From Candidatus Latescibacterota bacterium (GTDB lineage: Bacteria; Latescibacterota; UBA2968): a stretch of 64,000 bases of DNA. The notes beneath the pieces are model-generated. The model ran no database searches. It had not been told where the DNA came from and saw nothing but the letters and a program-made list of their open reading frames with translations. The DNA is taken from the NCBI GenBank assembly GCA_965207885.1, contig OZ242311.1, forward strand, positions 6,016,001 to 6,080,000, written 5' to 3'. The stretch's first letter is position 1; every line of letters starts with the position of its first letter. Of the stretch, positions 3,712 to 53,811 are shown in pieces. The translations under genes and the position numbers were made by a program.

Positions 3712-5220
3712 ATGGTAAATAAAAAAATAGAACGCTGGGGACTGTGGCTCGGTCCTGTGATTGGGCTGAGTGTCACGGTTTTTGGAGATCTCAAGCCGGG
3801 ACATCCCGAGGTGACACATACGGCAGGTGTGGCCTGCTGGATGGCGGTTTGGTGGATGACAGAGGCCGTGCCTTTGGCTGCGACGGCACTGTTGCCCGTG
3901 GTGCTGTTTCCCCTGCTGGGTATTATGAGCGGGCAAGAGGTTGCGCCACTTTATTTGAATCATATTATTTTTTTGTTTGTCGGTGGTTTTATGGTGGCAT
4001 TGGGCATGCAACGCTGGAATTTACACCGGCGAATTGCCCTGCGCTTGCTGCTCCTTTTTGGAGGGTGTCCCCGGTGTATTCTGACGGGTTTTATGCTGGT
4101 AACGGCGTTTTTGTCCATGTGGATTTCCAATACGGCGACAACGATGATGATGGTGCCTATTGCGCTTGCAATTGTGGTTAGAATGGAAGAGCAGGGTGTG
4201 GCATCTGGTTCTTTTGGCACGGCGGTGTTTCTGGGGGTGGCTTATGCGGCTTCAATTGGTGGGAGTGCAACGCTTGTGGGTACGCCGACCAATTTGTCTT
4301 TTGTGAGGATTTTATCGATTCATTTTGCAGAGGTTCCCGAGATTTCATTTGCGATGTGGTTTGCTTTTGCTCTGCCTCTGGCATGTGTGATGCTCGTTTG
4401 TGCGTGGGGTGCGCTTTGCCTTGTTTTTGGCATTCGCGGTCGCGGCGATGATATTGATCTGAGTGTGGTGCGCGCGCAATATGCCGAGTTGGGGCCGATG
4501 TCATTTGCCGAGAAGGTCGTGCTGGCCGATTTTGTATTGTTGGCGCTGTTGTGGTTGTCGAGACGCCCCATTCAAATTGGCGATTGGACGCTGCCGGGCT
4601 GGTCTCAGTTTTTCGAATCTGGCGGATTGATAACCGATGGGTCGGTTGCTATGGCAATGGCTCTGATTTTATTTGTCGTGCCCGCGCGGGATGGCGCGAA
4701 ATCCAGGGTGATGGATTGGCAAACGGCTGGCAATGTGCCCTGGCATATTGTTTTGCTGATTGGCGGTGGATTTGCTCTGGCAAGTGGGTTTAAGGAGTCG
4801 GGGTTGTCGCTCTGGTGCGCGCAGCAGTTGGAGGGTATGGGGCGCTTGCATCCTCTATTTTTGGTCGGTGGTTTGTGTGTGATGATGACTTTTTTGACAG
4901 AGTTGACTTCCAATACGGCAACGGCAGAGATGTTTCTTCCGGTTTTAGCGGCGTTATCTGTGGCGGTGGGTCTCAATCCATTGTTGCTGATGATTCCAGC
5001 CACGTTGTCGTGTTCTTGTGCGTTTATGTTGCCGGTAGCTACGCCGCCCAATGCAATTGTGTTTGGCACGGATAGAATTTCTATGCGCGATATGGCGCGC
5101 GTGGGCGTGGGGTTGAATTTAATAGGGGCTGTGATGATTACTGCTGCGATTGCTGTTGTTGGTCGCGTTGTGCTGGGTATTGAACTTGGGGTGATGCCCG
5201 ATTGGGCGAAAATTCAATAG
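3712..5220 (+). CDS. SLC13/DASS family sodium:dicarboxylate or sulfate symporter
   Basis: WWMTEAVP, SMWISNTAT, GTPTN, TELTSNTA and AFMLPVATPPNAIV motifs. Confidence 0.92.
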   Translation: MVNKKIERWGLWLGPVIGLSVTVFGDLKPGHPEVTHTAGVACWMAVWWMTEAVPLAATALLPVVLFPLLGIMSGQEVAPLYLNHIIFLFVGGFMVALGMQRWNLHRRIALRLLLLFGGCPRCILTGFMLVTAFLSMWISNTATTMMMVPIALAIVVRMEEQGVASGSFGTAVFLGVAYAASIGGSATLVGTPTNLSFVRILSIHFAEVPEISFAMWFAFALPLACVMLVCAWGALCLVFGIRGRGDDIDLSVVRAQYAELGPMSFAEKVVLADFVLLALLWLSRRPIQIGDWTLPGWSQFFESGGLITDGSVAMAMALILFVVPARDGAKSRVMDWQTAGNVPWHIVLLIGGGFALASGFKESGLSLWCAQQLEGMGRLHPLFLVGGLCVMMTFLTELTSNTATAEMFLPVLAALSVAVGLNPLLLMIPATLSCSCAFMLPVATPPNAIVFGTDRISMRDMARVGVGLNLIGAVMITAAIAVVGRVVLGIELGVMPDWAKIQ

Positions 5221-5233
5221 GCGGGAGGTAGCG

Positions 5234-7009
5234 TCAATCCGCGACCTGTGACTCGCGGGTTGCAATGCGCGATAGTATTTCGCCATTGCGCGTGAGGTCT
5301 TGCGCCCGTACCATGCGCGCATAGAGTCCATCTCGGTCGATGAGGGAACTGTGGTTGCCCGTTTCGACCACGCGCCCTTCGTCGATTACAGCAATGGTGG
5401 GTGACCGGCGCACAGTGGAGAGGCGATGGGCAATGACGAGGGTGGTGCGATTTTGCGTGAGGCGATAAAGGGCTTCTTGAATAAGTGCCTCGGTTTCAAC
5501 GTCCACAGAAGATGTGGCTTCATCAAGGATGAGGATGGGGGCGTCTTTAAGCAGTGCTCGGGCTATGGAGAGGCGTTGTTTTTCACCGCCGGATAATCGC
5601 ACGCCTCGTTCTCCAATCACGGTGTCATATCCTTTGGGCAGGTCGCGAATAAAGGCATGGGCATTGGCTGCTTGTGCGGCTTCTCGAACTGTGCGTTCGG
5701 TCGCATCTGGACGACCAAAGATCAGATTTTCATATACTGTGCCGTGAAATAAAAAGACGTCTTGAAGGACTGAGGCGATATTTTGGCGCACAAAAGAGAG
5801 GGGTAGATCGCGCAGGTCATATCCGCCAATGCGAACCGCGCCTTGTTGGGGGTCATAAAATCGGGGCAAGAGGTTGGCAAGGGTTGATTTGCCCGCGCCC
5901 GTGGGTCCGACGAGTGCGAGAATATCTCCTTCATCAATGTACAGGTCAATGTCGTGTAAGACGGGTGTGTTGGGATCATAGCCAAATGTGAGTGCGTCAA
6001 TGTCGATATCCCATGTGATGGTTTTGGGCACGGTTACACCGGGCGCGTCGGTAATTTCCGGACGGATGGCGAGGAGTTGAAAAACGCGTTCTGTGCTGGC
6101 GGCGGCTTTTTGCAATACATCGTTAAAAGATGCCAGTTGCAAAAAAGGCTGGTAGATGTGGCCCATATAGACAATGAAGACAAATAGATCAGCTACCGAG
6201 ATGCTGTCGCTGAGGGCCATGTTGCCACCGCTCCAGATGACGAGTACAATGCCCAGTCCACCTGTGGCTTCAATGATGCCAGCGGGCAGGAGCGAGACTG
6301 TGTTGGCTTTGATCAAGCGGTCGTGAAAGGTGGCACTGCGGTGGGTTACCTGGTGGGCGCATTCCCGCTCGCGAGCAAATGATTTGATGACGGCAATGCC
6401 CGACATGTTATCCTGTACGAGGGCGGCGAGTTCGGAGAGCCGTTCGCGCACTGCATGCCACATGGCGCGCACTTTGGATACATAGCGATATACGAGAAAT
6501 GCCATGAGCGGAATGGGCAATATGGCGATGAGGGCGAGTTCCGGGTTGAGGTAAAAGAGCACGGCGATCATGGATATGGGGATAACCGTGGCGAGCGCGG
6601 TTTCGGGTATGCCGTGTGCAATAAAGTCTTCGATGGCTTCGATGTCGTTGATGGAGCGAGCCATGAGATTGCCGGTGCGCTGGCGATTGAAAAAGCTATG
6701 GGATAGGTTTTGCAGGTGCTTGTACACGCGCGTCATAAGCGCGTGCATCACGCGATAGGCAGTGACGTGGGAAAAGAAGCCATAACCATAACGGGAGACA
6801 CCGCGAAGCAGGTAAATTCCAAGGAGTAAGAGGCTGACTTCTATGAGGTCCCCTGCGGGTTTTGCTTCGGTGAGCCACTGGATGAGTTTGCGGATGAGCA
6901 ATGGTGGGATCAGATTGGCCGCTGCAAAGATAAGTCCACAGGCGATGCAGCATGCCATAAAGAGACGGCGACCTTCGAGCAGATCGTAGATTTGTTTGAT
7001 AAAGGTCAT
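5234..7009 (-). CDS. ABC exporter, fused permease and ATPase
   Basis: N-terminal TM domain; GPTGAGKST, LSGGEKQR, ILILDEATS, IAHRLST. Confidence 0.93.
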   Translation of the reverse strand: MTFIKQIYDLLEGRRLFMACCIACGLIFAAANLIPPLLIRKLIQWLTEAKPAGDLIEVSLLLLGIYLLRGVSRYGYGFFSHVTAYRVMHALMTRVYKHLQNLSHSFFNRQRTGNLMARSINDIEAIEDFIAHGIPETALATVIPISMIAVLFYLNPELALIAILPIPLMAFLVYRYVSKVRAMWHAVRERLSELAALVQDNMSGIAVIKSFARERECAHQVTHRSATFHDRLIKANTVSLLPAGIIEATGGLGIVLVIWSGGNMALSDSISVADLFVFIVYMGHIYQPFLQLASFNDVLQKAAASTERVFQLLAIRPEITDAPGVTVPKTITWDIDIDALTFGYDPNTPVLHDIDLYIDEGDILALVGPTGAGKSTLANLLPRFYDPQQGAVRIGGYDLRDLPLSFVRQNIASVLQDVFLFHGTVYENLIFGRPDATERTVREAAQAANAHAFIRDLPKGYDTVIGERGVRLSGGEKQRLSIARALLKDAPILILDEATSSVDVETEALIQEALYRLTQNRTTLVIAHRLSTVRRSPTIAVIDEGRVVETGNHSSLIDRDGLYARMVRAQDLTRNGEILSRIATRESQVAD

Positions 7010-15214: not shown

Positions 15215-18200
15215 GTGATGGACTTGCGGAGATGGATAATTATTTTTGCAGGGGGTGTGATAGGCATGGTCAATGCGGCGATGGCACAGAATACACCGTG
15301 GCACTACAGTTTTGAGGAAACGACGCTGTCGGCGGCCTATCGGGCAGATGCGGGTAGTCAGGTTTCGCTTTCGACGAGACGTTATAAGGCGGGGCAGCAA
15401 TCTCTGAAGTGGGCATGGCAGAATAATGGGCGGCTTGTGTTCACGGATCCGGCAACACAACGCAATCGGACGCTGAACGGTTTTCGGGCGTGGGTGTACA
15501 ACGAGGAGGCGCTCGATGAGGTGCTGACGTTTGGGTTTGGTACGGAATCTGAGTTGTCGGCAAATAATCCGCGTTACCGGTTTGAGTTTGGTTTGAATTT
15601 TACGGGCTGGCGGGCGATGTGGATCAATTTGGAAGATGATGCGCGGAATAATTCTTATACGGGTCCGAGAAATGGGCGTGTGACGGCGTTTGAAATCCGT
15701 GCGCCGAATGGTGGAACTGTGTATCTGGATCTGGTGGAATTGGTGGAGAGAATTCATTTCAGGCGATCTCCCGATGCACAGGTTCCATTTGTGAATGGAG
15801 GTATAAATACAAGTGGCGAGAGAACCCGCGAATACAGATGGAGTCTGAATACATTGCCGGGTCCGCTTCCTTTGCAGATCACTGATGATGAACGGAGGGC
15901 TCTTGAGACGATTGCGGCGCGATATGAGGCGTGGGTTCTGGGTGATGGGGTGAAAGATGATCAGCGGGAGCCAGTGAGGATTCGGCTCAATGAACTTACA
16001 GCATACATAAGGCGCGGGCATCGCAATCTCGCAGATTACGAGATTCGGCGGGAAGATGACCGCATTTTGGGAAAGCCTCTGTTTGCAGCCCTTTCACCCT
16101 ACAGGCCCTATTTTCAGAGTGTTTTTCAAAATGTTTTGTTGCGTCTGGTGCTGGATTATCGGTTGAATGGCAATGAGGAGGCCAAAGATCGCGTGATAGA
16201 TGTTTTCGATTATCTGCACGATCAGGGTTGGGCAGAAGGCAGTGGTGTTGGCGCGATGCATCACGAGTTTTTACGGATTGCGAGCTATGCGCATGCGGTG
16301 TATTTGATGCGGGATGTTTTGGGTGATACGAATCGACTGGAACGGGAATTGGCGAGTTTGAAATGGTATAGCATGTTTGGCGAGTTGTATGAACAGACCT
16401 GGGATCCGGGCACGAATGCAGATTTTTTGCGTTCGGTGGCGATGTATCGGTTGTTGTGCATTTTGATGATGGACGATTCGCCCGAGAAGGTGGCGAATAT
16501 GCATCGCTATGTGGCGTGGTTGAATAATGCGCTATCTATTGCACCTGGCTGGCTGGATACGATTAAGCCGGATTTTGTGGGTTTTCACCATCGGGGTATT
16601 TACGCCAATGCGTATGCGCCAAACGCCTTTCACGTGGCTTCTGTTCTGGTGTATTTGTTGCACGATACGCCTTTTGCGGTTGCAGATGATAAGCGCGATA
16701 ATTTGAAGCAGGCACTGTTAACAGCCAGAGTTATGACGAATACGTATGATATTTCAACGGCCATTAATGGGCGCTTTCCGCTTAATACAACGGTAACGGA
16801 TGGTCTTTTGCCGGCGTATATGTATGTGGCTTTGAGTTATCCTTCGGTGGATGCGGAATTATCGGGCGCGTTTATGCAGCTTTGGAGACCTCAATCGCAG
16901 TTGCTGATAGAAGGTTTGTTTGAACAGGTAGCTTCTCGGATCATGTATTTGCACACGCCGGGTGCGATGCAGATGATGGCGGATTTTGCAAGTGCGGGAT
17001 ACCCACCTATTGCTGTGCCTTCTGGTCACTGGACATTGCCTTATGGCGCGTTGTCCATTCATCGGCGTGGAGACTGGATGGTGAGCATGAAGGGATGGAG
17101 CAAATACGTGTGGGATTACGAGTCGTCATCTGGCGGAGAAAATCAACTCGGTCGTTATTTGAGCTATGGTTCGATGCTGATTTACGGCAGTGGCGATCCG
17201 GTCACGCGTGAGGCGAGTGGGATTGTGCGGGATGGGTGGGACTGGAGCATGTGGCCCGGTACGACGGTGATTCGCCTGAGTCATGAGCAGCTCAAACACG
17301 AGGGGCGCGATCGCAATTTTTCGGATGAGACTTTTGTGGGTGGGGTGAATATAGAAGGGCAGAATGGTGTGTTTGCGCTGAAGTTGCACGATACGAGATT
17401 CAATACGAGTTTTCGGGCGGTTAAGACGGTGTTCTGTTTTGACGATGTGATAGTTTGTCTGGGTTCTGGTATTGAGAATGATGATGGTGGGCATGCGACT
17501 GTGACGCCGCTGTTTCAGGCGTCTATCTCTGAAGATCGGCCTACGGGAGTGAATGGGGAAAATGTGCGGGGGATTCCTTATGCGTTTTCGGGGACAAAGG
17601 GGCAGAGGGCCTGGGTAATGGATTCACGGGGCAATGGGTATGTGATTCCAGATGGGGGCGACTTGCGGGTGCAGCGCCAGGTACAAACTCCTGGAGATTT
17701 TGGCAGCGAGGGTGGTACAGGAACTTTTGAATTGGCGTATCTGGATCACGGTCCTATGCCTCAGGGTGCGTCATATCACTATGCCGTGCTGGTTCAGAGG
17801 TCGCCTGATAGGGTGCGTGCGTTTGCGAGTGCGCCGGAATACGATGTTTGGCAGCGAGATCATCAGGCACATATCGTGCATCATCGCGGGATGAAGATGA
17901 CGGGCTACGCGCTGTTTGAGACGGATGCGAGGCCGACAAATGGTCCGGTTGAGGCTGTATCTTTGCCGAGTTTGGTGATGACCCGCGAGATAGGTGATGG
18001 GTTATTGCTTTCGGTGGCTGATCCGGATTTTGGGTGGAGCTGGGAGATCCAGACGCCGCATCGGCAGGATGGTTCGCTAATTGTCAATCAGGCGAGTATG
18101 CCCCGGAAGGTAGAGGTGACAGTGCGCGGAAAATGGCGTTTGGATCAGTCCTATGATCTGGTAGAGATTGTAGAGGAGAACGAGGATCAGACGGTTGTGG

Positions 18201-18496
18201 CTTTTATTTGTCAGGATGGCGAGAGCGTAGAGGTGAAACTGATATCGGGAATAAGTGTGAGTGTTGCAAATCTGGATTTTGATGGGGACGGTGTGATCGG
18301 CATAGGGGATTTTTTGCTTTTTGCCAGTAAATTTGGTCTGTCGGAGGGTGATGCGGGTTTTGAAGCAAAATACGATCTGGATGGCAATGGCATAGTGGGA
18401 ATCAGCGATTTTCTGATTTTTACACAGGGATTTGGTAAACCGGTGGGTGGAAAGCCAGTGGCTCTCCGGAATGGAGGAGAAAGATTGGGATCGTGA
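15215..18496 (+). CDS. Chondroitin ABC lyase-like polysaccharide lyase (PL8) with C-terminal dockerin-like module
   Basis: LNFTGWRAMW, DQGWAEGSG, IKPDF.GFHHRGIY, GRYLSYGS, GWDWS.WPGTT; C-terminal DFDGDG..DFLLF..FG repeat. Confidence 0.88.
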   Translation: MMDLRRWIIIFAGGVIGMVNAAMAQNTPWHYSFEETTLSAAYRADAGSQVSLSTRRYKAGQQSLKWAWQNNGRLVFTDPATQRNRTLNGFRAWVYNEEALDEVLTFGFGTESELSANNPRYRFEFGLNFTGWRAMWINLEDDARNNSYTGPRNGRVTAFEIRAPNGGTVYLDLVELVERIHFRRSPDAQVPFVNGGINTSGERTREYRWSLNTLPGPLPLQITDDERRALETIAARYEAWVLGDGVKDDQREPVRIRLNELTAYIRRGHRNLADYEIRREDDRILGKPLFAALSPYRPYFQSVFQNVLLRLVLDYRLNGNEEAKDRVIDVFDYLHDQGWAEGSGVGAMHHEFLRIASYAHAVYLMRDVLGDTNRLERELASLKWYSMFGELYEQTWDPGTNADFLRSVAMYRLLCILMMDDSPEKVANMHRYVAWLNNALSIAPGWLDTIKPDFVGFHHRGIYANAYAPNAFHVASVLVYLLHDTPFAVADDKRDNLKQALLTARVMTNTYDISTAINGRFPLNTTVTDGLLPAYMYVALSYPSVDAELSGAFMQLWRPQSQLLIEGLFEQVASRIMYLHTPGAMQMMADFASAGYPPIAVPSGHWTLPYGALSIHRRGDWMVSMKGWSKYVWDYESSSGGENQLGRYLSYGSMLIYGSGDPVTREASGIVRDGWDWSMWPGTTVIRLSHEQLKHEGRDRNFSDETFVGGVNIEGQNGVFALKLHDTRFNTSFRAVKTVFCFDDVIVCLGSGIENDDGGHATVTPLFQASISEDRPTGVNGENVRGIPYAFSGTKGQRAWVMDSRGNGYVIPDGGDLRVQRQVQTPGDFGSEGGTGTFELAYLDHGPMPQGASYHYAVLVQRSPDRVRAFASAPEYDVWQRDHQAHIVHHRGMKMTGYALFETDARPTNGPVEAVSLPSLVMTREIGDGLLLSVADPDFGWSWEIQTPHRQDGSLIVNQASMPRKVEVTVRGKWRLDQSYDLVEIVEENEDQTVVAFICQDGESVEVKLISGISVSVANLDFDGDGVIGIGDFLLFASKFGLSEGDAGFEAKYDLDGNGIVGISDFLIFTQGFGKPVGGKPVALRNGGERLGS

Positions 18497-18513: not shown

Positions 18514-18556
18514 AACAAACAAAAGCCGCCACATTATGTGGCGGCTTTTGTTTGTT
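18514..18556. terminator. Bidirectional intrinsic terminator
   Basis: AACAAACAAAAGCCGCCACAT-T-ATGTGGCGGCTTTTGTTTGTT between convergent genes. Confidence 0.85.
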
Positions 18557-18557
18557 G

Positions 18558-18833
18558 TTACTCAGAATGCGACTTGTCCCAAATGGGTTTTACTTTTTCG
18601 ATGACTTCAGCATCAGTCGGGCTGGATGCGACGATGTTTGTAAATTCTTCAGCTTCAACTCCGAGTTCCTCCAGGAACTTTCTGTCAGCTGGTCACGGAT
18701 AGACGTAGTCACCGATGCAGCCTCGCAATTTGGCGCGGGCTTTATCCGTAATGCGCGGGAGCCAGGGCATGTCGCCCATGTAAAGCTGACGGCTACGCGG
18801 TCTAAAATCGACGGCGGAACTGAGTTTGTCCAT
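18558..18833 (-). CDS. DUF5069-like small protein with in-frame UGA at codon 47, putative selenoprotein (91 aa)
   Basis: MDKLSSAVDFRPRSRQLYMGDMPWLPRITDKARAKLRGCIGDYVYP-U-PADRKFLEELGVEAEEFTNIVASSPTDAEVIEKVKPIWDKSHSE*. Strong GAAGGAGG RBS, UGA at 18695-18693, terminator directly after the TAA. Confidence 0.8.
18664..18679 (-). promoter_or_regulatory. Putative bacterial SECIS hairpin
   Basis: mRNA AGUUCC-UGGA-GGAACU begins 13 nt after the UGA; G at loop position 2. Confidence 0.6.
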
Positions 18834-18906
18834 TGTAGATCCCTCCTTCAAGTATAATGGCTTTTACAATTGTTAAAACATAGTGATTTTGGCGATGGAT
18901 AGCAAG

Positions 18907-19479
18907 TTAGAAAGTAAGGGTGTATGTGCTCAATGTTGTGTCGCCGTATTTTTTTTGTCGGGAGAGGATGAGGCTGGGAAAGGATTTTGGTAGCGTTGTA
19001 CGAGAGGCGTGTTGTACGAGAATGCGTGCATTGGGCGCGAGTATCGGAGATGTTGCGAGGCGGGTGAGTATGGTGCAGGACATAGGGTGTCCGTCTAATT
19101 GTTGGTGATAGGGAGGGTCGAGGTAGATGATGTCGAATAGGGCTTTTACATGCGCGAGTTGGGGCAAGAGTTTTTGCGCGGGACGCGCGTAAAGATAGAT
19201 GCGGTCGTTGAGATGCCAATTGTCTATGAGCTGTGCGATGAAGCGGTTGCAGCGGCGGTCGGGTTCATTGATGACTACCTGAGCGCCGCGGCTACAGGCT
19301 TCGAGGCCGATTTGACCAGAGCAGGAGAAGAGATCGAGGAAATATTTGCCGCAGAGGATTTCGCCCAGAGAAGAGAATACGGCTTTTTTGACAAAGTCGG
19401 ATGTGACGCGGGCATTGCCGTGCTTTTTATTGTTAAAGGGGATGCGGCGACCCTTAAATTCGCCAGCGATGATGCGCAT
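18907..19479 (-). CDS. rsmD: 16S rRNA m2G966 methyltransferase RsmD family
   Basis: MRIIAGEFKGR, FLDLFSCSGQIGLEA.SRGA, FDIIYLDPPY, KKYGDT. Confidence 0.85.
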   Translation of the reverse strand: MRIIAGEFKGRRIPFNNKKHGNARVTSDFVKKAVFSSLGEILCGKYFLDLFSCSGQIGLEACSRGAQVVINEPDRRCNRFIAQLIDNWHLNDRIYLYARPAQKLLPQLAHVKALFDIIYLDPPYHQQLDGHPMSCTILTRLATSPILAPNARILVQHASRTTLPKSFPSLILSRQKKYGDTTLSTYTLTF

Positions 19480-23540: not shown

Positions 23541-26500
23541 TTAGAATCCCTCAAACTGGCTCAGGTCTGCAATGCCGTCGGGCAGGGCGGCGATGTGCTG
23601 GGCGAGGGCGAGGCGCGATTGCTTGAGGTCGGGATCATCGACCATGATGAACACGTCTTCGAAGAAGCGGTTGATGGGGTCGCGCAATTCGGTCATGACC
23701 TGGATCAGGGCGGTGAGTTTGTCGTCGGCTGTGTCCATTGTTTTGCGCGCGGCGAGATAGGCTTTGTGCAGTGCATTGGAAGCTTCTTCGGGGTCGCGGT
23801 CGGGATTGAGGTCGTAGTTTTCCGAGAGGTCGCGCACAATGCGTTTGCACCGCGCATGGGCGTGCAGGATATCGAGCCATTGATCGGAATGGATTTGCGC
23901 GGTAAATGCCCGGGCAATCCGCTGGATTTGATAGGGGTCGTCCAGGTTCGCCGCAATCGCAGCGGAAATCGCGTCGTGGCGCAGGCCTTCGTCTCGAAGG
24001 ACGACTTCGAGGCGGCGGATGATGTAGTCAAAGGCTTCGTCAATGGCTTCTCGTTTGACCACAACGGGCAGGTGAACGGCGGCTGTGTTGAGGCTCTGGC
24101 GAAGTGAAAAATGCATTTTGTAACCGAGGAGATTTGAAAGCAGTCCCAGGGTATCGCGTCTGAGACCATAGGGATCGGCATTTGAGCGGGGTTTGATGCC
24201 CACGCCAAAAAGACCGGCGAGGCTGTCGAGACGGTCGGCAATTGAGACGGCGAGGCCAGGTTGTGTTTGGGGCAGGGCGTCGCCCGGGAAGCGCGGGTGG
24301 TAATGGTCTTCAATGGCGCGCGCAACGGCTTTCGTTTCGCCTGAAGACAGGGCGTAATAGCGGCCCATGATGCCTTGCAGGGAGGTCATTTCGACGACCA
24401 TGCTGGTCGCCAGGTCGGCTTTGCACAATACGGCTGCGCGCAGAGCCGCTTTTTTATTTTCTCCACGAAGTTCAAGCGCATCAGATAAGTCGTTGACGAG
24501 TTTTTCAATGCGGCGGGTTTTGTCGCGCATGGAGCCGAGTTTTTCTTGAAAGGTGAGGGTGTCGAGGCGCGTGAGAAAGTCGCCGAGTTTTTTGGTTGTG
24601 TCGTCTTCGTAAAAAAATCTGGCGTCGGCATATCGGGCGCGTATGACGTTTTCATTGCCTTTGACGACGAGGTCGGGGTCGTCGGGTATTCCGTTGCACA
24701 CGGTGATGAAACTGGGTTTGAGGTTGCCTTTTTCGTCGAGTACCGGGAAGTATCGCTGGTGTTTTTTCATGACGGCGATGAGCATTTCACGGGGTAGGGA
24801 AAGGCGCGCGCTTTCAAAGGTGCCACAAAGCGCGTGCGGGGCTTCGACGAGGTCGGTGACTTCGTCGAGGAGGTCGGGATCTTCGGGCACGTTGCCGTCT
24901 ATTTTTTTGGCGAGTGTTTCAACTTGTTTTTTAATGGTTTCCCGTCGTTTGTCGCGGTTGACTGCGATGCCGTGTTTTTGCATTTGCGCGCGATAGTCAG
25001 TAGCAGAAGCGATTTCGATTTTTGGCGAGGCATTGGGGCGCAGCCCGCGGCTCGTGCGTCCTGCTGTTGTGCGCGCATAAGTGAATGGGATGATTTGATC
25101 GCCAAAGAGGGCGACAATCCAGCGGAGGGGACGCGGATATGCGATGCCTTCGGAATTCCAGCGCATGGTTTTGCCAAAGCTGAGTTTGGCGATGAGTTCG
25201 GGCAGCAGTTCAGAGAGGATTTCCTGGGTTTTGCGCCCGTATATGGTGATGCCCGCCCAGACGTAGTCGTCGCGCTGTTCCACGTCTGATGGATCAATGC
25301 CCTGTCCGCGGGCGAATCCCTGAAGTGCTCGGGTGGGGTTGCCGTCATTGTCATAGGAGATGCGGATGGCCGGTCCGCGCGCTTGTCTGATTTCATCGGG
25401 TTGCCGTCCCTGTAAATTTTTGACGATGGCATATTGCCTGCGCGGCGTGGCGCTGACTTCGATGCTGTCGTACGAGAGCTTTATTTCGTCGAGGTGTTCG
25501 GGCAGCAATTTTTCGAGTTGTGCTATGGCGCTGACCACATCGGCAGGTGGCAGTTCTTCAGAGCCGATTTCGAGCAGGAGATCGGCGGTATCTACTTCGG
25601 GCAGGTCGTCGGCTTTGGATACCAGTGGGGGTTCGTCCTTTGATGGTTCTACAAGGGGATGTCCCTGGTCTGCGCGCTGTTTGAGATATGCTTCGGCTAT
25701 TTGGCGCGAGAGGTCGCGCATTTGGGCGAAGAAACGGGCGCGTTCGGTTACGCCAATTGCGCCGCGCGTGTCGAGTAGATTAAAGGTGTGTGAGCAGCGA
25801 ATGACGTAGTCGTGTGCGGGTATGACGAGGTCGCGGTCGAGGGCTGCCTGGGCTTCGGCTAAAAAGATGTCGTACATGGATTTGAGGCGGTTGACGTCGG
25901 CCCAGTAGAACTCGTAGTTGCAGTATTCTATTTCTTGTTTTTTGAGGATGTCGCCATACGTCACGGTGTCGTTCCACTGTAGTTTCCAGACTTCATCCAC
26001 GCCTTGAAGGTACATGGCAATGCGTTCGAGTCCGTAGGTGATTTCAACGGCTACGGGATCGAGTTGCATGCCGCCAGCTTGCTGGAAATAGGTAAATTGC
26101 GTGATTTCCATGCCGTCTAACCACACTTCCCATCCCAGGCCCCAGGCCCCCAGAGCGGGGGATTCCCAGTTGTCTTCGACAAAGCGGATGTCGTGCGCTT
26201 TGCAATCGAGACCCAGTGCTTCGAGACTTTTGAGATATAGTTCCTGCGGGTTGCCGGGGTCGGGTTTGAGGATGACCTGATACTGGGTGTGCATTTGCAT
26301 GCGGTTGGGGTTTTCACCAAAGCGCCCGTCGTCGGGGCGGTAGGAGGGTTCAACATAGGCGACGTTCCACGGTTCGGGTCCGAGGACGCGCAGAACCGTG
26401 GCGGCGTTCATGGTGCCTGCGCCCACTTTTTCGCTGTAGGGTTGCCATATTATGCAGCCGTTGTCGGCCCAGAAGCGCTCAAGGCGCATGATCAGGTCTT

Positions 26501-26561
26501 GAAAATTCAGGTGGTTACTCACGGTTGGTTCCTCAATTGGTGGATCGCGATCAGCGGTCAA
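23541..26561 (-). CDS. glyQS: Glycine--tRNA ligase, fused alpha and beta subunits
   Basis: [48 protein letters not shown] (alpha) continuous with [23 protein letters not shown] (beta). Exact start uncertain. Confidence 0.93.
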
Positions 26562-28217: not shown

Positions 28218-29546
28218 ATGATAAAAAGAGATCTGGAAAAACGTCTGATTGCATATCTATCTCGTCGCGTTGAACATTCGAATGTCGCCCTGTTAGAAGG
28301 CGCGCGGCAGGTTGGTAAGACCACGCTTATAGAATCTATCAGGCCGAAACTCGACCGCGAGATCCTCTATTTGAATTTAGAGGAGAACAGCCGCGCGGTT
28401 CACGATCTCAATTCTTGCAGGGATTTTGCAGATTTTGAGACGTATCTTGCGACTGTGTATCAGTTCAAGGGCGACGGTCAGCGCATTTTGTGTATTGATG
28501 AGGCGCAAGAGAGTTCTGTGCTGGGTGGGTTTGTGCGCTTTATGAAAGAAAAATGGCAGCACACACCGGTTATTCTTACGGGTAGTTCTATGTCGCGTAT
28601 CTTCGGGCCGGAGACGCGCTTTCCCGTTGGAAGAGTTACGCGATTTTTGCTACAACCCTTCAGTTTTAGAGAGTTTCTTCGTTGTGGAAAAGAAGAAGAG
28701 TTGCTCGCTTTTGAAGATCCCTTCCAGATACCCCTGTTTTTGCATGAACGCCTTCTCAAATACGTGCAGTCGTATCTCGATGTGGGAGGGCTACCGGCGG
28801 TTGCCTCATCGTTTTTTGACCAGATGGATTGGCGGCAGTTGCGTCGAGATTTGTATCTCGACTATCGCAGTGATTTTGCCAGGATTTTTTCGGCTACCGA
28901 AGCCTCTTTATTCGATCAGTGTTTGCGCGGTGTGGCATCAAATCTCGGTAGCCCAAGCAAGTACGCGCAGATGGTTCGGACGACGTCAGCTCTTTATAGA
29001 AGGGTACCGGATTTTCTGGAATTGCTCGAGTCGTGGAAGCTGATTTACAAGTCCAATATCCAGGGTACACGCCCAGAGCAACAGGGCTTTTCGCCCAAGC
29101 GCTATCTTTACGATCCGGGATTGGCCAATGATTTGCGGCTGACAGCGCTGCCGCGTATCGATATTCTCTCAAGTCTCGATGCCGCTCAGCGCGCGCCCCT
29201 TGGGGGTATTATTGAGAATATGCTGGCGACTGAACTCGTGGTATTGGGACAGGATTTGACGGGTTGGAAAAAGGGTGTTAACAGTTCTGAAGTCGATTTT
29301 ATTTTTCGCACGGCATTGGGCAATACCATACCCATCGAGTGCAAAGCGTCTCTTGTCACAAGGCCGCGGGATACACGTGGTCTGTCAGAATACGCTGCGC
29401 GGCATGGGAGCAATCTGGGCATTCTCGTCAATCTCGATATGCCAGGGAAACTCACGACATCTTCAGGGCTAAATATGATTCACATACCGGTTTATCTAAT
29501 TGATTGGCTTGGTGAAGTAATAGAAAGTGAGACGGAGAGTTCTTAA
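28218..29546 (+). CDS. AAA_14 ATPase with DUF4143 and C-terminal PD-(D/E)xK-like domain
   Basis: GARQVGKTT, CIDEAQ, LTGSS, VGGLPA, KRYLYDPGL, EVDFI...IPIECK. Confidence 0.88.
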   Translation: MIKRDLEKRLIAYLSRRVEHSNVALLEGARQVGKTTLIESIRPKLDREILYLNLEENSRAVHDLNSCRDFADFETYLATVYQFKGDGQRILCIDEAQESSVLGGFVRFMKEKWQHTPVILTGSSMSRIFGPETRFPVGRVTRFLLQPFSFREFLRCGKEEELLAFEDPFQIPLFLHERLLKYVQSYLDVGGLPAVASSFFDQMDWRQLRRDLYLDYRSDFARIFSATEASLFDQCLRGVASNLGSPSKYAQMVRTTSALYRRVPDFLELLESWKLIYKSNIQGTRPEQQGFSPKRYLYDPGLANDLRLTALPRIDILSSLDAAQRAPLGGIIENMLATELVVLGQDLTGWKKGVNSSEVDFIFRTALGNTIPIECKASLVTRPRDTRGLSEYAARHGSNLGILVNLDMPGKLTTSSGLNMIHIPVYLIDWLGEVIESETESS

Positions 29547-29573
29547 TCATCAATCAACCCCATCAATAGCGCC

Positions 29574-29680
29574 GTCATCGCGGTATGGTGTTGAGCCGCG
29601 ATCCAGAAGGTTTTGTAGGGGACGGTCCCCGTGCCGTCCCGTGTGTCATCGCGGTATGATGTTGAGCCGCGATCCAGAAG
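29574..29680. repeat. Composite REP cluster: two 36-bp GTCATC-type palindromes flanking a GTAG REP
   Basis: GTCATCGCGGTATG(G/A)TGTTGAGCCGCGATCCAGAAG at 29574 and 29645; GTAGGGGACGGTCCCCGTGCCGTCCC at 29615. Confidence 0.7.
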
Positions 29681-29692
29681 TGTCCAGAACGA

Positions 29693-30391
29693 TTATGACA
29701 GATCTTTCCATTCGTCAATGGTCGGTGTATTGATATCTTCGCGATAGATGACTTTGCCCTGAATGGCACTGCACACTTCTTCAGCCGGTATAGGAATAGA
29801 ACCGAGTTCTATAAGGTGGGCATTGTCCGGTGAGTCCAGGACGAATACCGGCTTGTTTTGAGCGAGTGCGTCTTTGCATAGCGTCTCTGTTTTGCCACCC
29901 GGTTCTGCGTGGGCGATGAGGATGCAGTCGGTGAGTGCAGCGATGTGTGCGTTGCGCCGGGCTGCTATGGCTGCGGTTGGGCGATGGATGTTGCCGTTGA
30001 AAAAGGAAAGGATTAGTAGGCGTCCTTCGGCGAGCGGTTTCTTCCAGTTTTTCGGCGTTCGCATGCGGCTGAGTCCCCGTGCCGGGCAGACGACAACGGG
30101 AGCCGTACCCCGCAACAACAGATCCAGACACTCCTTCTCCATTGGCGACTGAAAACCGCCGATGATCGTCGCGTCTGTATCTCGTAACGTCCGTGAGAGA
30201 TCGTAGGTCTTGAGGATTGTATCGCCGGGAGCGCGCACCGAACAGAAGAAGCTGAGCAATGTACTGTCGAGTACATTGAGGTTGCCCTGCGCTGTGACCG
30301 TCAATAGCTGCCCATTATCGGAACAACGCCGTAATGCCGCTGGATAGTCAGGAGTATTGGGCGTTAAAAGTATTTTGTTCTCAGGATTCAT
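29693..30391 (-). CDS. DprA/Smf-like Rossmann-fold protein (short, no wHTH)
   Basis: YP..L....GNL.VL, FFCSVRAPG, IIGGFQSPMEKECL, RRNA.IAAL, AEPGGKTE. Confidence 0.7.
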   Translation of the reverse strand: MNPENKILLTPNTPDYPAALRRCSDNGQLLTVTAQGNLNVLDSTLLSFFCSVRAPGDTILKTYDLSRTLRDTDATIIGGFQSPMEKECLDLLLRGTAPVVVCPARGLSRMRTPKNWKKPLAEGRLLILSFFNGNIHRPTAAIAARRNAHIAALTDCILIAHAEPGGKTETLCKDALAQNKPVFVLDSPDNAHLIELGSIPIPAEEVCSAIQGKVIYREDINTPTIDEWKDLS

Positions 30392-30398
30392 AGCAAAT

Positions 30399-30626
30399 TT
30401 ATGACTCAACGGATTCCTCTAAATCGCCTGCCTTGAGTGCTTCATATTCGCGCAAGTCGTCCTCAAGGTCGGCAAGCTGGCTCTGGATTGCTTCCTTTCT
30501 TGCTTTGAGCAATAGCGGATGGATGCCTGAAGATTCAGCTACTTCCTTCTCCAGTTCCCGCAAAGCTTGTGAGAAACGATCAGCCTGAGCGCTGGTTATT
30601 TTGTACTGGTGCTCGTTTTTGATCAT
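30399..30626 (-). pseudogene. Truncated XRE-type antitoxin/regulator (N-terminal helical domain only)
   Basis: MIKNEHQYKIT..QADRF..AL...IHPLLLKA..EAIQSQLADLE..LREYE.LK; the HTH that usually follows is absent. Confidence 0.55.
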
Positions 30627-30656
30627 GTAATTCAGTTCGCCCTATTAGCATCGCAC

Positions 30657-30878
30657 TCAGGCTCTAATTTCACCGAGTGCGATGTCTTCGATGATGACCT
30701 GTTTGAATATCTCTGGATCATCTAGCCGCTTCATGGCGTCGAGAATTTCAATGCCCGCGAGGCGGTCTTCCTCATCGTAATCCAGCGCAATCCCGTCTTC
30801 GAGATGTTTCGTTGTCACTGTTGTTTCTTTGAAGCAAATGTACAGTGCATCCACCTCTCGATCATAAGATATTTTCAT
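30657..30878 (-). CDS. DUF2283 family protein (putative antitoxin)
   Basis: MKISYDREVDALYI...IALDYDEEDRLAGIEILDA; start ATG 30878. Confidence 0.85.
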   Translation of the reverse strand: MKISYDREVDALYICFKETTVTTKHLEDGIALDYDEEDRLAGIEILDAMKRLDDPEIFKQVIIEDIALGEIRA

Positions 30879-30919
30879 TGTTATTTTCTCAAAAAATCGA
30901 AGTTCGCAGGCGGTTGTTT

Positions 30920-31225
30920 TCAAGCAGGCTGATAGCGTTTGACTTCTATCTCATCAGCCCGCGCCCGCATTTGCGCGGCGTCGTACCACGCCTGCATTCG
31001 CAACAGTGTGTCCATGCTGATGCCAAAGGCTTTCTCAATACGCAGCGCCATCTCCGCAGATAGGGTCGCGCTGCTATTCAACAGGTCAGAAAGAGTGTCC
31101 TGAGGAACGCCCAGAATCTCAGCTACATCTGCGACGCTTAATCCCAACTCCTCGACGATTTCCGTGCGGATGAAATCGCCGGGATGCGAAGGCGTCATAG
31201 TTATCTTAATGCCGTTGTCAGCCAT
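30920..31225 (-). CDS. higA: HigA family antitoxin (HTH)
   Basis: PSHPGDFIRTEIVEELGLSV..AEILGV...LSAEMALRIEKAFG.S.DTLLRMQAWYD; start ATG 31225. Confidence 0.88.
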   Translation of the reverse strand: MADNGIKITMTPSHPGDFIRTEIVEELGLSVADVAEILGVPQDTLSDLLNSSATLSAEMALRIEKAFGISMDTLLRMQAWYDAAQMRARADEIEVKRYQPA

Positions 31226-31360
31226 TAGTGATAATCTTTCAAGTGTAATAAAAATCCCGCGCTGGAATGACCAGACGGGATTTTTGTAATGTACGCCAGT
31301 GTTTGGAACAAAAAACAAATTACGTCCTGATTTCGCCACTTGTACAACACCTGCCATTGT

Positions 31361-31579
31361 TTATCCGAGTTTAACCAGAATCAGCATTCCAAGTGTTACA
31401 ATCGTGGTGACCTGGATGCCGACCAGCCAACGAAAGTCTGTTCTGGCTGCTTGTTGAATTTGCTCAACGCGATTCTCAAGGCTTGTCAAGCGCGTGCTGA
31501 TTTGCTCAACAATGCCTTCAATACGGCTCAAGCGGGCGTCAAATTCTGCCAGCTTGTCTTGTGGTGTCGGAACCTGCAT
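31361..31579 (-). CDS. Small coiled-coil protein with C-terminal TM helix (DUF1640-like)
   Basis: RLSRIEGIVEQISTRLTSLENRVE...DFRWLVGIQVTTIVTLGMLIL; AGGAAAG RBS. Confidence 0.65.
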   Translation of the reverse strand: MQVPTPQDKLAEFDARLSRIEGIVEQISTRLTSLENRVEQIQQAARTDFRWLVGIQVTTIVTLGMLILVKLG

Positions 31580-31657
31580 GGAAAACGCTTTCCTGAATTT
31601 GGTAAGGGATTAGCAGACCTATCAGTAGCCACTGATTCTGAGCATTCATTTTTTCAC

Positions 31658-32088
31658 TTTCCTGTAGGAAGCCACGTCCTTTGGGCGTGGTCAGAGATAG
31701 TTGGCTTTGCCGTTAAGCCGTTTTGTGGGTATATTTCGCAGGTGCTATCGTAGCGCACACAAAGGCACTCTCTTTGAGAGTAAACGGTTTCGGTGTGGGA
31801 GAGCACACAAAACCCTCTCTGTGATGTTAGTTGAGAGGCAGATTTGGCAACAACAGCGGTATGGATTGCGGTTGTGTTGTCGTCAAATCTGATGGGCATA
31901 GTTAGGGGCCTGACCTCCCAAACCTGCGGTAGCAATCCGCTGCTGTCAACTGCCCTGAAGTCTCGCCACGCAGTGAGCGGTTTAAACCTAAGCCCTTGCT
32001 CGGATATGCTGCATTGCCTCCAATGGGTGGGTCAAGCACCTGGGGGTGTGGCAGGGACAAGCCACCTGCTCAGCAGGTGGTGGTTGAC
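31658..32088 (+). mobile_element. Non-autonomous IS200/IS605 mini-element (431 bp, no ORF) carrying an omegaRNA
   Basis: Left end: TCAC|TTTCCTGTAG-GAAG-CCACGTCC-TTT-GGGCGTGG. Right end: CAAG-CCACCTGC-TCA-GCAGGTGG-TGGT-TGAC|. The GAAG/TCAC and CAAG/TGAC pairs obey IS608 guide/cleavage-site pairing rules. Confidence 0.85.
31707..31735 (+). promoter_or_regulatory. Promoter inside the mini-element
   Basis: TTGCCG (31707-31712), 17 nt, TATATT (31730-31735). Confidence 0.6.
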
Positions 32089-32108
32089 AATTATCATCTC
32101 TGAATGAT
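31944..32108 (+). ncRNA. Stand-alone TnpB omegaRNA (reRNA) scaffold plus predicted guide AATTATCATCTCTGAATGAT
   Basis: Collinear with the TnpB right end at 45090-44986: TGTCAAC, CCT.AAGTCTCGCCA, CCAATGG, GTCAA.CACC.GGGG, identical TGTGGCAGGGACAAGCC, GTGGTTGAC. Confidence 0.8.
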
Positions 32109-32188
32109 TTAGCCTACTAACAGAGATATGTCAAGAGATATTTTTCTTTTACTGATTCGCTTCCGAAAAATGGCACAGTCTTATCCAT

Positions 32189-32275
32189 TCAATCCGATTC
32201 CTCAATAATTTCCATGCGGATGAAATCGCCGGGATGCGAAGGCGTCATGGTTATTTTAATGCCGTTGTCAGCCAT
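32189..32275 (-). pseudogene. Truncated second higA copy (28 aa)
   Basis: MADNGIKITMTPSHPGDFIRMEIIEESD*, nearly identical to the N-terminus of higA at 31225. Confidence 0.8.
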
Positions 32276-32447
32276 CAGTAATAATCTTCCAAATGTAATA
32301 AAAATCCCGCGCTGGAATAACCAGACGGGATTTTTGTAATGTACGCCAGTGTTTGGTAAGAAAAAAACAAATTACGTCCTGCTTTCGCCACTCTGAGCAG
32401 GCCATTGAGAGATTACCCGAGGGGCAACGATTTCCCATTTGCGTGAC

Positions 32448-33440
32448 TTATTGCCCTTTGACATTCGAATGGCTGTTTCCACCGCGTTTCGCGTCCCGGG
32501 CTTCCTCGTTGATGCGGCTTGTCTCTGACTCTGGGGGGAGGTTTTGAGTCTCATCATTCATCTCCTTGAATTGACCTACGAGGGTCAGTCCTTCGTTAAG
32601 CTTGGGGATTAGTGCATCAAAAATTGCATCTAATTCCGGTAACGGATTTTGAACCTTCAGTCCAATTTTTTTGGCTTCGTCCGAATCAATGACAAATCCA
32701 TGCTCAGGATATTCTTCCACTAAACTCTGTGCAATCTTTCTTGCTTCTTCTTCTGTGTGTTTTGAAGATAGCAAACGGATAGCATACTCTTCAGCTACTC
32801 GCAAAACGCGTGCCATTTGTGTATAGTGAACCGCGTCGATGTTTTCGATCAAGGGCCGTATAAAATTGGCTGTATATTCAAGGGTATGCGGCAAAATTGA
32901 ATCTATCTTTTTTCCCGTTCGCCCTATAAGCAGCCACATAGTCTGATCAAAAACCTCAATCGCAGCGGCATTTAATCTATGAAGAGTGTGAACCTCGTCA
33001 AGTGCCGAAATAATACCCTCTCTTTCAACATCTGCAAGTTGGGCGTCAAGTGGTCCCAACTCGGCATCTAACCCCATGCAAATGTGCTGTGCGCCCAGTG
33101 CCAAAAGCGTGGCTGCGCTTTTGGCATATCGGGGAATGAGGGCTATAAAACCGGCTCGCCGATTAAAAAGCCGAGCAATCTGATAAGCTACTCGCGCATC
33201 CCCGCCAAGTGAATCTATCAATAGCAGTGCTGGTTGTTCTGAGGATATCTCGCGCTTTCTTTCCAAAAATTCATGTTGCAACCCATCACGGATTGGGTTG
33301 TTGTCAAAGAGGAATAGCCAAAGTGGTAAGTTCTCAAATTGGTTTCGCAAATCACATAGCAGATGAACAAGGTCGTCGTCTAGTTCGCCTTCTTCTCCAG
33401 GATATATGTCAGCGATATATTTCTTCTGATTTTGAGACAT
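32448..33440 (-). CDS. SDH-family Clp-fold serine protease
   Basis: LLIDSLGG, IPRYAKSAATLLALGA, ELGPLDAQ, YPEHGFVI. Confidence 0.8.
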   Translation of the reverse strand: MSQNQKKYIADIYPGEEGELDDDLVHLLCDLRNQFENLPLWLFLFDNNPIRDGLQHEFLERKREISSEQPALLLIDSLGGDARVAYQIARLFNRRAGFIALIPRYAKSAATLLALGAQHICMGLDAELGPLDAQLADVEREGIISALDEVHTLHRLNAAAIEVFDQTMWLLIGRTGKKIDSILPHTLEYTANFIRPLIENIDAVHYTQMARVLRVAEEYAIRLLSSKHTEEEARKIAQSLVEEYPEHGFVIDSDEAKKIGLKVQNPLPELDAIFDALIPKLNEGLTLVGQFKEMNDETQNLPPESETSRINEEARDAKRGGNSHSNVKGQ

Positions 33441-33642
33441 TTATCTTTCTCCCAAACCAATCATCCCTAATGATTTAAGCCATTTTAAATAGATGTGTCA
33501 AGAGGTATTTTTGTTTCACTGATTCGCGTACTATGATCAGTGTGTTTAGTGAATGGCAACATCCAGGTCAATGTGCCGTAATCGTCCCTGCAGAACTCGT
33601 CTGGTTCTTGCAACGTCTTATTTTACATTGGATAGCAACGGG

Positions 33643-34486
33643 TCAGATTGAGGTCTTTTCTTCTGCTTCAGACAGAAATACGATAGCCGATGCTGTCATA
33701 TTTAACATGTAAGCAACGAGATGATTCGGCACAGCTTCCGGAGTTGTACCTTGCCCGTGCCCGCTCAATTTGTTGCGTCCGGTAGGTACACTACTCTCCA
33801 AAAGATTTCGCAGAGACGAATAGTGCGATTGCCAAAACGATGGGATCAGTCCGTTATCAAAACAAACCTGAATCAAGGGCTTTGAGGTTGCATTTTTACT
33901 GTAACTCCACCTTCTCTTGTCGCAAATCGTTTTCATTACGCTCTCGAATGCTTTTAGACATTCGTTGAGGGCTTCTTTGGCATTTCCTTTTCGATAGTGT
34001 TCGTGCGCTTTTAAGAACTCCTGTTGCGCTCCGGCATATTGCTTTTGGTCGAGCAATCTGAGCGCAGGCTTAACAATTTCAGTGTGAGTAAATTCAGAAT
34101 CGATGCGGATAATTTGTCCTTTTGTGAATTGATAGCTAACGCCATGCTCCTTAAATCTTTGATTTAATTCTTCTATTGCGTCATCGCGATCTATAAACCG
34201 AAATGACAATTCTACTGCATCAAGAACCTTTTCGATATTTTTTTCATTTAAAAAAATCAAAAAATTCTTTTCTATAATCTCTTGGATAGCCTGTCTCAGC
34301 CAGAAGAAAAACGCCATATTCACGACATAGAGTATTGACTATGAATTCATAATGCCTAAGAGTATCTCTCCAGATGTGAACTATCTGCACTCTGAGAGGA
34401 TTAGGAAGGTCATCATAAACATAGACATCAGGCATTTCTCCCCGAAGTCTCTTTTGACGCTTTGAGAATAGGTCAAATATAGCCAA
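33643..34486 (-). pseudogene. AbiJ-NTD plus HEPN-like (STM4504-like) protein split by a frameshift in a T7 tract
   Basis: MAIFDLFSKRQK..RGE.PDVYVYD.LP..LRVQIVHIW joins LNEKNIEKVLDAVELSF...ELNQRFKEHGV.YQF...RNKLSGHGQG. Frame change at A7 34250-34256. Confidence 0.75.
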
Positions 34487-34507
34487 GTCTAATTTCTCCT
34501 TTCAACT

Positions 34508-34696
34508 TCAACGACACTCCCTACACCAAGACTGCTTATGCCAGACATCTTCACCTTGGTGTATGTCATCTCTCTTGCGCCAACCGAACTCATCAATGGT
34601 GAGCAATTCTTGGCACTCGGGACAGCGCCATACTGGCGTTTCCCCTCCCTTATTATCTTGGATAACACCATCCGGCTCTGGCAATTTCACAAGCAT
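34508..34696 (-). CDS. Small zinc-finger protein
   Basis: CPEC...WCREC; AAGAAGG RBS; lies between the MTase and the HEPN gene. Confidence 0.55.
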   Translation of the reverse strand: MLVKLPEPDGVIQDNKGGETPVWRCPECQELLTIDEFGWRKRDDIHQGEDVWHKQSWCRECR

Positions 34697-34712
34697 TTTT
34701 ACCTTCTTGATT

Positions 34713-37976: not shown

Positions 37977-37985
37977 TTTATATCC

Positions 37986-45004: not shown

Positions 45005-45090
45005 AGCCTGTGGGCTTGTCCCTGCCACATGATTCCCCCGGTGGTTGACACCACCATTGGGGGTATGGCGAGACTTTAGGCTTGTTGACA
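44966..45090 (-). ncRNA. omegaRNA of the TnpB element; predicted guide ACCCCAATCTCCTCAAAGGG
   Basis: Overlaps the tnpB 3' end and the right-end hairpin; 5' GTCAAC is complementary to 3' GTTGAC. Confidence 0.75.
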
Positions 45091-53226: not shown

Positions 53227-53736
53227 CTATTTTTGTCGCCAGATTTCCCAGACGAGGTGTGAGAGTTCGGGTACGATGAGTTTTTCCATGGCGAGTTGCA
53301 CGGCGCCAGATGATCCCGGCATGCAGAAGATCATGGTGTCTTTGTACACGCCTGCTACGGCGCGAGAGAGCATGGCGCCCGAGCCGATGTCTTCCCAGGA
53401 GAGAAAGCGAAATACTTCGCCAAATCCATCGAGGCGTTTGTCGAGCAGGCTTGTGACGGCTTCATAGGTGGTGTCGCGCGCGGCAATGCCGGTGCCGCCA
53501 TTGGTGAGGATGACGTGGCATTCGCCTTTTTCGGCGATTTGTTTGATAAGCGCGCGTATCTGGTCGGCTTCGTCTTTGACTACGCGGTAAAACGCGATGC
53601 TGTGACCGGCGGCTTCGACCAGTTCTTTTATGATTTTGCCGCTTTTGTCATCGGCTTCGGTGCGCGTGTCGCTGATGGTGAGTACAGCACAGGTGACGGG
53701 GTCTTTGGCCTGTTCAATGTGATCTGTGTAAGGCAT
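53227..53736 (-). CDS. moaB: Molybdenum cofactor biosynthesis protein MoaB/MogA
   Basis: VLTISDTRT..DDKSG, TNGGTG..RDTT.EA, AMLSRAVAG, MPGS. Confidence 0.9.
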   Translation of the reverse strand: MPYTDHIEQAKDPVTCAVLTISDTRTEADDKSGKIIKELVEAAGHSIAFYRVVKDEADQIRALIKQIAEKGECHVILTNGGTGIAARDTTYEAVTSLLDKRLDGFGEVFRFLSWEDIGSGAMLSRAVAGVYKDTMIFCMPGSSGAVQLAMEKLIVPELSHLVWEIWRQK

Positions 53737-53779
53737 GGGGAACTCCGGGATGAAAGCAGATGTGATAATATTATTAATT

Positions 53780-53805
53780 GTAGGGGCGACCCCCTGTGGT
53801 CGCCC
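53780..53805 (+). repeat. GTAG-type REP
   Basis: GTAGGGGCGACCCCCTGTGGTCGCCC. Confidence 0.65.
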
Positions 53806-53811
53806 GATAGT

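Follow-up and report, generated by a model that had tools for sequence, protein, structure and literature searches.

The SECIS element of the fdhF type in Escherichia coli is a hairpin bound by SelB. It lies within the coding region just past the UGA, carries a G in its apical loop and stands at a fixed distance from the codon, and the hairpin described here is arranged likewise, although the two are unrelated in sequence. In the model of bacterial SECIS elements given in the accessible part of PMC13188914, the apical loop has 3-9 nt with a G in its first two positions, the upper stem has 4-16 bp, the distance from the UGA is 16-37 nt, and the folding energy is -7.5 kcal/mol or lower. The gene studied here was found in a window of 64,000 nucleotides, the whole stretch of DNA that was analysed. 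It very probably encodes a bacterial selenoprotein with selenocysteine (Sec) at codon 47, a reading to which we assign a probability of about 0.88 and which is based on the codon pattern in relatives, a conservation at the RNA level that accompanies the TGA, the agreement with the SECIS model and the membership in a protein family. The gene and the features that flank it are as follows.

18558..18833, minus strand: coding sequence of a short-form DUF5069 protein, 91 residues, stop included, with Sec predicted at codon 47 (TGA-read-through translation and Pfam)
18693..18695, minus strand: predicted Sec codon, an in-frame TGA at codon 47 (column alignment to 80 loci)
18842..18849, minus strand: Shine-Dalgarno sequence GAAGGAGG, 8 nt upstream of the ATG (read from the sequence)
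18528..18545, both strands: GC-rich hairpin with a T run on either strand, terminator-like (consensus scan only)
18907..19479, minus strand: rsmD-type methyltransferase gene (Pfam Cons_hypoth95), upstream on the same strand across a 73-nt gap (Pfam)
15215-18496, plus strand: family-8 polysaccharide lyase gene, 1093 residues, convergent on the terminator of the Sec gene (Pfam)

The minus-strand frame runs from the ATG at 18833 to the TAA at 18560-18558, and its sole in-frame TGA, at 18695-18693, is codon 47. The residues ...GDYVYP precede this TGA and 44 further codons follow it, ending in a TAA that lies 12 nt from the terminator-like hairpin at 18545-18528. The original prediction had described a gene with a strong Shine-Dalgarno sequence between the lyase terminator and rsmD, in which read-through of 44 codons leads to a TAA by the terminator; both statements were borne out, the Shine-Dalgarno sequence being read directly at 18849-18842. 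The start Met of the gene is the same Met as in the homologues, and with standard ORF finding the product stops at the TGA and has only 52 residues. The hairpin at 18528..18545 is likely to be a bidirectional terminator common to the Sec gene and the convergent PL8 lyase gene. The lyase itself carries dockerin-like calcium-binding repeats at its C-terminus, as judged by eye.

The read-through product was searched against Pfam and belongs to DUF5069 (PF16798), as had been proposed, with E=2e-16 and 60.8 bits compared with a gathering cut-off of 27. The match aligns protein residues 12-83 with profile positions 4-75 of 133, and since only this part of the profile is covered, the Sec protein is considered a short form of DUF5069. 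An AlphaFold model built on 24 relatives has a mean pLDDT of 85.2 and positions residue 47 immediately ahead of a helix comprised of residues 48-57. Comparison of the model with PDB 3OMD, an uncharacterised DUF5069 protein from Leptospirillum rubarum, by Foldseek resulted in an E value of 9.9e-05, a TM-score of 0.78 on the query, an rmsd of 1.4 Å and 38% identity; the same fold search against the PDB gave nothing significant besides 3OMD, with the next matches at E>1. The sequence of 3OMD also matches the profile of close relatives (E=1.3e-16, residues 11-84), and the alignment is unbroken across the TGA position. 3OMD therefore has the same fold and family as the Sec protein, and like the Sec protein it is of unknown function. 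The two differ in length, 3OMD having 145 residues with a C-terminal third that the 91-residue protein of the window is without, and at the aligned position 3OMD has the Cys of Y-N-C-P-L-D (a Y-x-C-P-x-D motif), where the window's protein would have Sec. The Cys of DUF5069 was expected to align with the UGA, and this is what the homologues, 3OMD included, show at column 47. The product would be a 91-residue short DUF5069 fold made up of a beta-hairpin and four helices, with the selenol placed in the motif Y-P-U-P directly before the second helix.

Relatives of the gene were collected in one scan of species-representative genomes, in which 236 were found and the nearest 80 of these kept as loci. 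The codon aligned with codon 47 in these 80 loci is TGA in 61, TGC in 15 and TGT in 4, with no other codon present; as the 80 loci were kept for their closeness to the window's protein, the proportion of 61 in 80 overstates the frequency of Sec in the family. By label, the TGA genomes are 36 Latescibacterota, 18 Poribacteria and 6 Gemmatimonadota with 1 unlabelled, and the 19 Cys genomes are 5 Poribacteria, 1 Opitutales and 13 Latescibacterota or Gemmatimonadota. Trp or variable residues at this column had been named beforehand as a sign against a Sec codon; the 80 loci have TGA or Cys codons only. Relatives with TGC or TGT and no conserved UGA had been named as a second such sign; the UGA is instead kept across two candidate phyla, and the close TGC relatives, L010 and L012, show a decaying hairpin. 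Past codon 47, residues D50, L54, F64 and D74 are invariant in 80/80 loci and F53 is present in 78/80. A lone in-frame stop in a gene this small and without annotation could in principle indicate a pseudogene or an assembly error. The chance of this is practically nil. The same TGA recurs in the genomes of 61 species, which were assembled independently, belong to two candidate phyla and include several closed chromosomes. The frame past the TGA is undisrupted, the residues on either side of it do not vary, and these comparative data already refute the idea.

The wider family was surveyed by an exhaustive profile search of 1.84 billion representatives, which gave 761 matches at E<=0.001, and the best 150 of these were aligned. 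Cys is dominant at the Sec column of DUF5069, occurring in 103 of the 132 single-domain representatives among these best 150 of 761, with Ser in 12, Trp in 1 and other residues in 5, and the remaining 11 proteins end exactly at ...YP, just before column 47. In the 40 rows that come from tandem-domain proteins, again among the best 150 of 761, Ser occurs 17 times and Cys 6 times. The presence of Ser at column 47 in some members indicates that the residue is not essential to every member of the family. Pro is the next residue in 85 of the 109 representative DUF5069 domains that carry the Cys.

The proteins that end at ...YP bear on whether the TGA is a real stop, in which case the product would be a 46-residue N-terminal peptide, perhaps accompanied by a separate downstream peptide, and the hairpin would serve in pausing or mRNA stability. 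Gene callers emit exactly this 46-residue product, TGA is otherwise a normal stop in this genome, and besides the 11/132 representatives three database clusters (P0023, P0030 and P0032) have copies ending at ...YP. However, the 44 downstream codons are in frame and conserved at the protein level in 61/61 TGA genomes. Past the TGA there is no start codon or ribosome-binding site. The solved homologue 3OMD is moreover a single domain across both halves, and the TGA alternates with Cys codons only. We therefore give a real stop no more than a very slim chance.

Decoding of the UGA as an amino acid other than Sec was considered as well, either through reassignment to Trp or Gly (NCBI tables 4 and 25) or through near-cognate read-through inserting Trp or Cys. 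Two observations are in line with this: five database clusters (P0003-P0006 and P0012), which come from short contigs, have W at the site, in the form Y-P-W-G, and no Sec machinery was seen in the window and the 80 loci. The W proteins are nevertheless probably artefacts of gene calling, as P0005, the one Trp protein among the 132 single-domain representatives, equals the read-through product of L018 at 90/91 residues, the sole difference being W in place of the TGA; the Trp at column 47 would accordingly stem from the genetic code used by the gene caller. The Trp forms are probably, judging from this comparison of sequences, TGA codons read with the TGA=Trp (Mycoplasma) table, and TGG is found at the column in 0/80 loci. 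Within the window, TGA also terminates 14 of 34 ORFs with Pfam support, a count on which genome-wide reassignment according to tables 4 or 25 was rejected, and in 12 of the TGA loci (e.g. L009, L021, L029 and L042) it is the stop codon of this gene itself. Finally, a hairpin within all published SECIS limits strictly co-occurs with the TGA. Decoding without Sec is accordingly judged very unlikely. Callers thus render the gene as a stump of 46 residues, as a C-terminal fragment or, with the Mycoplasma code, as a Trp protein, and as a consequence of this mishandling protein databases carry wrong sequences. Database copies of the Sec gene sometimes also have spurious N-terminal extensions.

The reading of codon 47 as Sec draws further support from the hairpin that follows the TGA, which consists of a core and a lower helix.

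18664..18679, minus strand: putative SECIS core hairpin, 6-bp stem AGUUCC/GGAACU with the apical loop UGGA at 18673-18670 (conservation in 62/62 TGA genes)
18650..18691, minus strand: putative extended SECIS stem-loop with a lower helix around the core, -14.2 kcal/mol (minimum-free-energy fold)

A hairpin of this stem and loop had been predicted 13 nt after the UGA and was located at 18679-18664, with exact coordinates. The distance from the UGA to the loop is 19 nt. The values of the published SECIS model, as stated in the accessible part of PMC13188914, accommodate the window's hairpin in every respect, with its 4-nt UGGA loop, its 6-bp stem, its distance of 19 nt and the -14.2 kcal/mol of the extended form. 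Taken alone the hairpin of the window is unremarkable, with a z of -0.98 and 31/200 shuffles folding as well, and the core stem by itself contributes only -5.8 kcal/mol, so that its significance comes from the comparison with relatives only. Only the core is firmly supported, because the lower helix pairs in a different register from clade to clade. Rfam gave no match, either for the whole window at gathering scores or for the gene region at E<=10.

For this comparison the window and the 61 loci with TGA were combined into 62 TGA genes, which align free of gaps with the TGA as columns 1-3. The 12 bases TTCCTGGAGGAA, in columns 19-30 and beginning 15 nt after the TGA, are invariant in 62/62 TGA genes. 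As codons 7-10 after the TGA they read UUC CUG GAG GAA in all 62, third positions included, whereas another Phe codon, eleven codons further in the same genes, is UUC in 36 and UUU in 26. The four core codons vary in the 19 Cys genes, where the Phe position is UUC in 9, UUU in 8 and UGG in 2, four different Leu codons are used and at least 8 codons occur at each Glu position. The 12-base core is found exactly once each in 62/80 loci (the 61 with TGA and the Cys locus L010), always at the same offset from codon 47, and is absent elsewhere in about 0.9 Mb. The 14-mer GTTCCTGGAGGAAC has one copy in the window, where 0 are expected. Most stem pairs never vary, and true covariation consequently rests on the two flanking pairs: pair 18-31 is GC in 61 and CG in 1 of the 62 TGA genes, and pair 17-32 is AU in 42, UA in 9, GU in 5 and broken in 6. 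The covariation score of the hairpin in the TGA genes was reached by 0/500 shuffles. Among distinct TGA rows 89.9% of the cells pair, compared with 8-60% when the partner columns are slid, and on the Cys genes the same structure pairs in 66% of the cells, with no excess. The core helix is present in the minimum-energy fold of 58/62 TGA genes compared with 1/19 Cys genes, the hairpin thus being missing in 18/19 Cys genes, and over columns 4-50 the folding energies of 62/62 TGA genes lie between -8.2 and -20.7 kcal/mol. The SECIS-like character ascribed to the hairpin in the original prediction is upheld by an invariant core that accompanies the TGA and by the agreement with the published model. 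With a 12-base core common to two phyla it is an unusually clean SECIS example, which would be useful for training SECIS predictors.

The distribution of Sec and Cys was placed on a quick maximum-likelihood tree of 81 proteins, which contains 91 columns only and has many unresolved forks. Five changes between Sec and Cys are needed on this tree, at least three of them forced by well-supported branches. Sec is the prevailing form in a Poribacteria clade of 18 rows and in a Latescibacterota clade (43/45 rows), and the SECIS core is identical in the two. L010 and L012 (6139-6198 in each) are TGC forms inside the window's own well-supported 18-row clade and have one stem-breaking substitution apiece, as would be expected once the TGA is gone. 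From their sequences these two look like recent conversions of Sec to Cys in which the hairpin is starting to decay.

When the ribosome arrives at the UGA of codon 47, with the hairpin just downstream, the hairpin would act as a SECIS element and recruit SelB carrying Sec-tRNA(Sec); selenocysteine would then be inserted at the UGA and translation continue for 44 codons. The binding of SelB to the hairpin of the window is suggested by analogy with described elements, and we infer that the host organism possesses the Sec machinery. A Pfam search of 40 ORFs of the window gave none of selA, selB and selD, ARAGORN gave no tRNA-Sec in the window or the 80 loci, and tblastn with SelA, SelB and SelD of E. 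coli K-12 gave no match in the 963,625 bases that make up the window and the 80 loci. Sec-containing hydrogenases or Sec use are reported for some Poribacteria in the accessible part of PMC13582414, and SelA together with SelB is reported from sponge-symbiont bins of various phyla in that of PMC5649159. No report of Sec use in Latescibacterota was found in the searchable literature; the phylum is mentioned, in the accessible part of PMC8318568, only as a recovered genome.

Residue 47 is the sole Cys/Sec in 36/80 relatives. The other relatives have a second Cys, which in 17 of them (all members of the window's clade) is at position 39 and in 27 at position 71, so that there is no conserved resolving Cys. 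The other conserved residues are mostly basic or aromatic: R13, R15, W24, R27 and K31 are invariant in 80/80 loci, and Y43 and Y45 are present in 79/80. The odds that the Sec residue of DUF5069 has a redox or relay function appear even, and a reactive single selenol at the N-terminus of a helix, cycling through a selenenylsulfide with an external thiol or partner, is put at equally balanced odds. The swapping of Cys and Sec would mark residue 47 as the chemically active one and offers an experimental entry to DUF5069.

The neighbourhood of the gene was examined with Pfam on 58 of 102 listed neighbour ORFs. An rsmD-type methyltransferase gene is located upstream in Latescibacterota (the window, L001, L023 and L027), and pheA (chorismate mutase/prephenate dehydratase) is located downstream in seven Poribacteria loci, with the Sec and the Cys form alike. 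No theme common to the gene neighbourhoods of the sampled loci emerged, as the phyla differ and no pathway is indicated. In L054, from Poribacteria, a gene at 4752-5975 encodes a fusion of glutaredoxin with a thioredoxin-reductase-like flavoprotein; it directly precedes the Sec gene and has the same orientation. This fusion, seen once among the sampled loci, could be a redox partner of the Sec protein. DUF5069 is fused in the wider family to a cupin (3 representatives), a methyltransferase, an AI-2E transporter and DUF2249, and more weakly to DLH and amino-acid-kinase pieces; with no consistent fusion partner, no functional conclusion is drawn from the fusions. Neither neighbours nor fusions define a pathway, and the functional claim is therefore limited to a reactive single selenol.

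An unlikely alternative for the function is that DUF5069, rather than being a conventional thiol oxidoreductase, is a one-residue ligand or relay protein, which binds heme or a metal, or carries a persulfide or perselenide to a partner. The motif Y-P-(Cys/Sec)-Pro-hydrophobic is similar to the Cys-Pro heme-regulatory motif. Possible partners of such a relay are nearby RNA-modification enzymes, namely rsmD in Latescibacterota and queG, two genes away, in some Poribacteria. If this were true, the protein would be a natural selenoprotein whose Sec serves as a ligand or in Se/S trafficking, in phyla without a described selenoproteome.

Several other genes of the window were recorded during the analysis. 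A glycyl-tRNA synthetase with alpha and beta fused, of about 1000 residues, is encoded at 23541-26561 on the minus strand and also at 2260-5262 of L027; in L027 this gene is directly followed by rsmD, after which comes the Sec gene, and in the window two ORFs, one of them for a TPR protein, stand between it and rsmD. A run of defence-type genes at 28218-41345 encodes an AAA_14/DUF4143 ATPase, a DprA-like protein, an HTH protein, an SDH-type ClpP-like protease, an AbiJ-NTD4/DUF7014 protein, a 1087-residue Eco57I/MmeI-type methylase and a 1119-residue SNF2 helicase with a PLD nuclease domain, and looks like a defence island. The minus-strand gene at 45076-46188 is TnpB/Cas12f-like (OrfB_IS605 with a Cas12f1-like TNB domain) and presumably belongs to an IS605-family element. 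A scan of the window for TGA read-through gave six candidates outside annotated ORFs, the Sec gene among them. Another of the six, a frame at 53230-54582 on the minus strand, was rejected as a selenoprotein, since by eye it consists of two adjacent in-frame genes, the first for a sugar-isomerase-like TIM-barrel protein and the second for a MogA/MoaB-like protein with its own Met. The plus-strand ORF at 53515-54432, with 306 residues and no Pfam match, is probably spurious.

On this evidence DUF5069 would be a new selenoprotein family that uses the ordinary bacterial Sec mechanism. PF16798/DUF5069 is not among the 119 prokaryotic selenoprotein families or subfamilies in Table 1 of PMC13188914 (May 2026), no NCBIfam model matches the read-through product at E<=1, and neither 'DUF5069' nor 'PF16798' occurs in the roughly 8.4 million searchable papers and preprints, a body of text that excludes subscription journals and most supplements. 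The view that this is not a standard selenoprotein family agrees with its absence from the 119-family inventory, NCBIfam and the searchable literature. The new families of deep-Sep are different from DUF5069, as far as the accessible part of PMC12013277 describes them. The hypothetical protein GOS_A of the GOS study is unrelated, and the motifs of the Sec protein are absent from the two supplementary sequence files of that study (PMC2398784). The inventory would thus gain a family, which would imply Sec use in the candidate phylum Latescibacterota. New selenoprotein families turn up regularly, and the case of DUF5069 is well supported and widespread in two little-studied candidate phyla.

Among the families in Table 1 of PMC13188914, the UGSC-containing protein and the hypothetical proteins GOS_B and GOS_C, examples of bacterial selenoproteins listed there as of unknown function, resemble the Sec protein in being short, in having one Sec and in having many Cys homologues. 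They also have the SECIS element directly 3' of the UGA, and they were discovered by the pairing of Sec with Cys. Despite these common features, the Sec protein has no sequence relation to any of the three. Its motif is Y-P-U-P/G rather than UxxC or CxxU, with no second Cys conserved, and its fold, as modelled, is helical and not thioredoxin-like.
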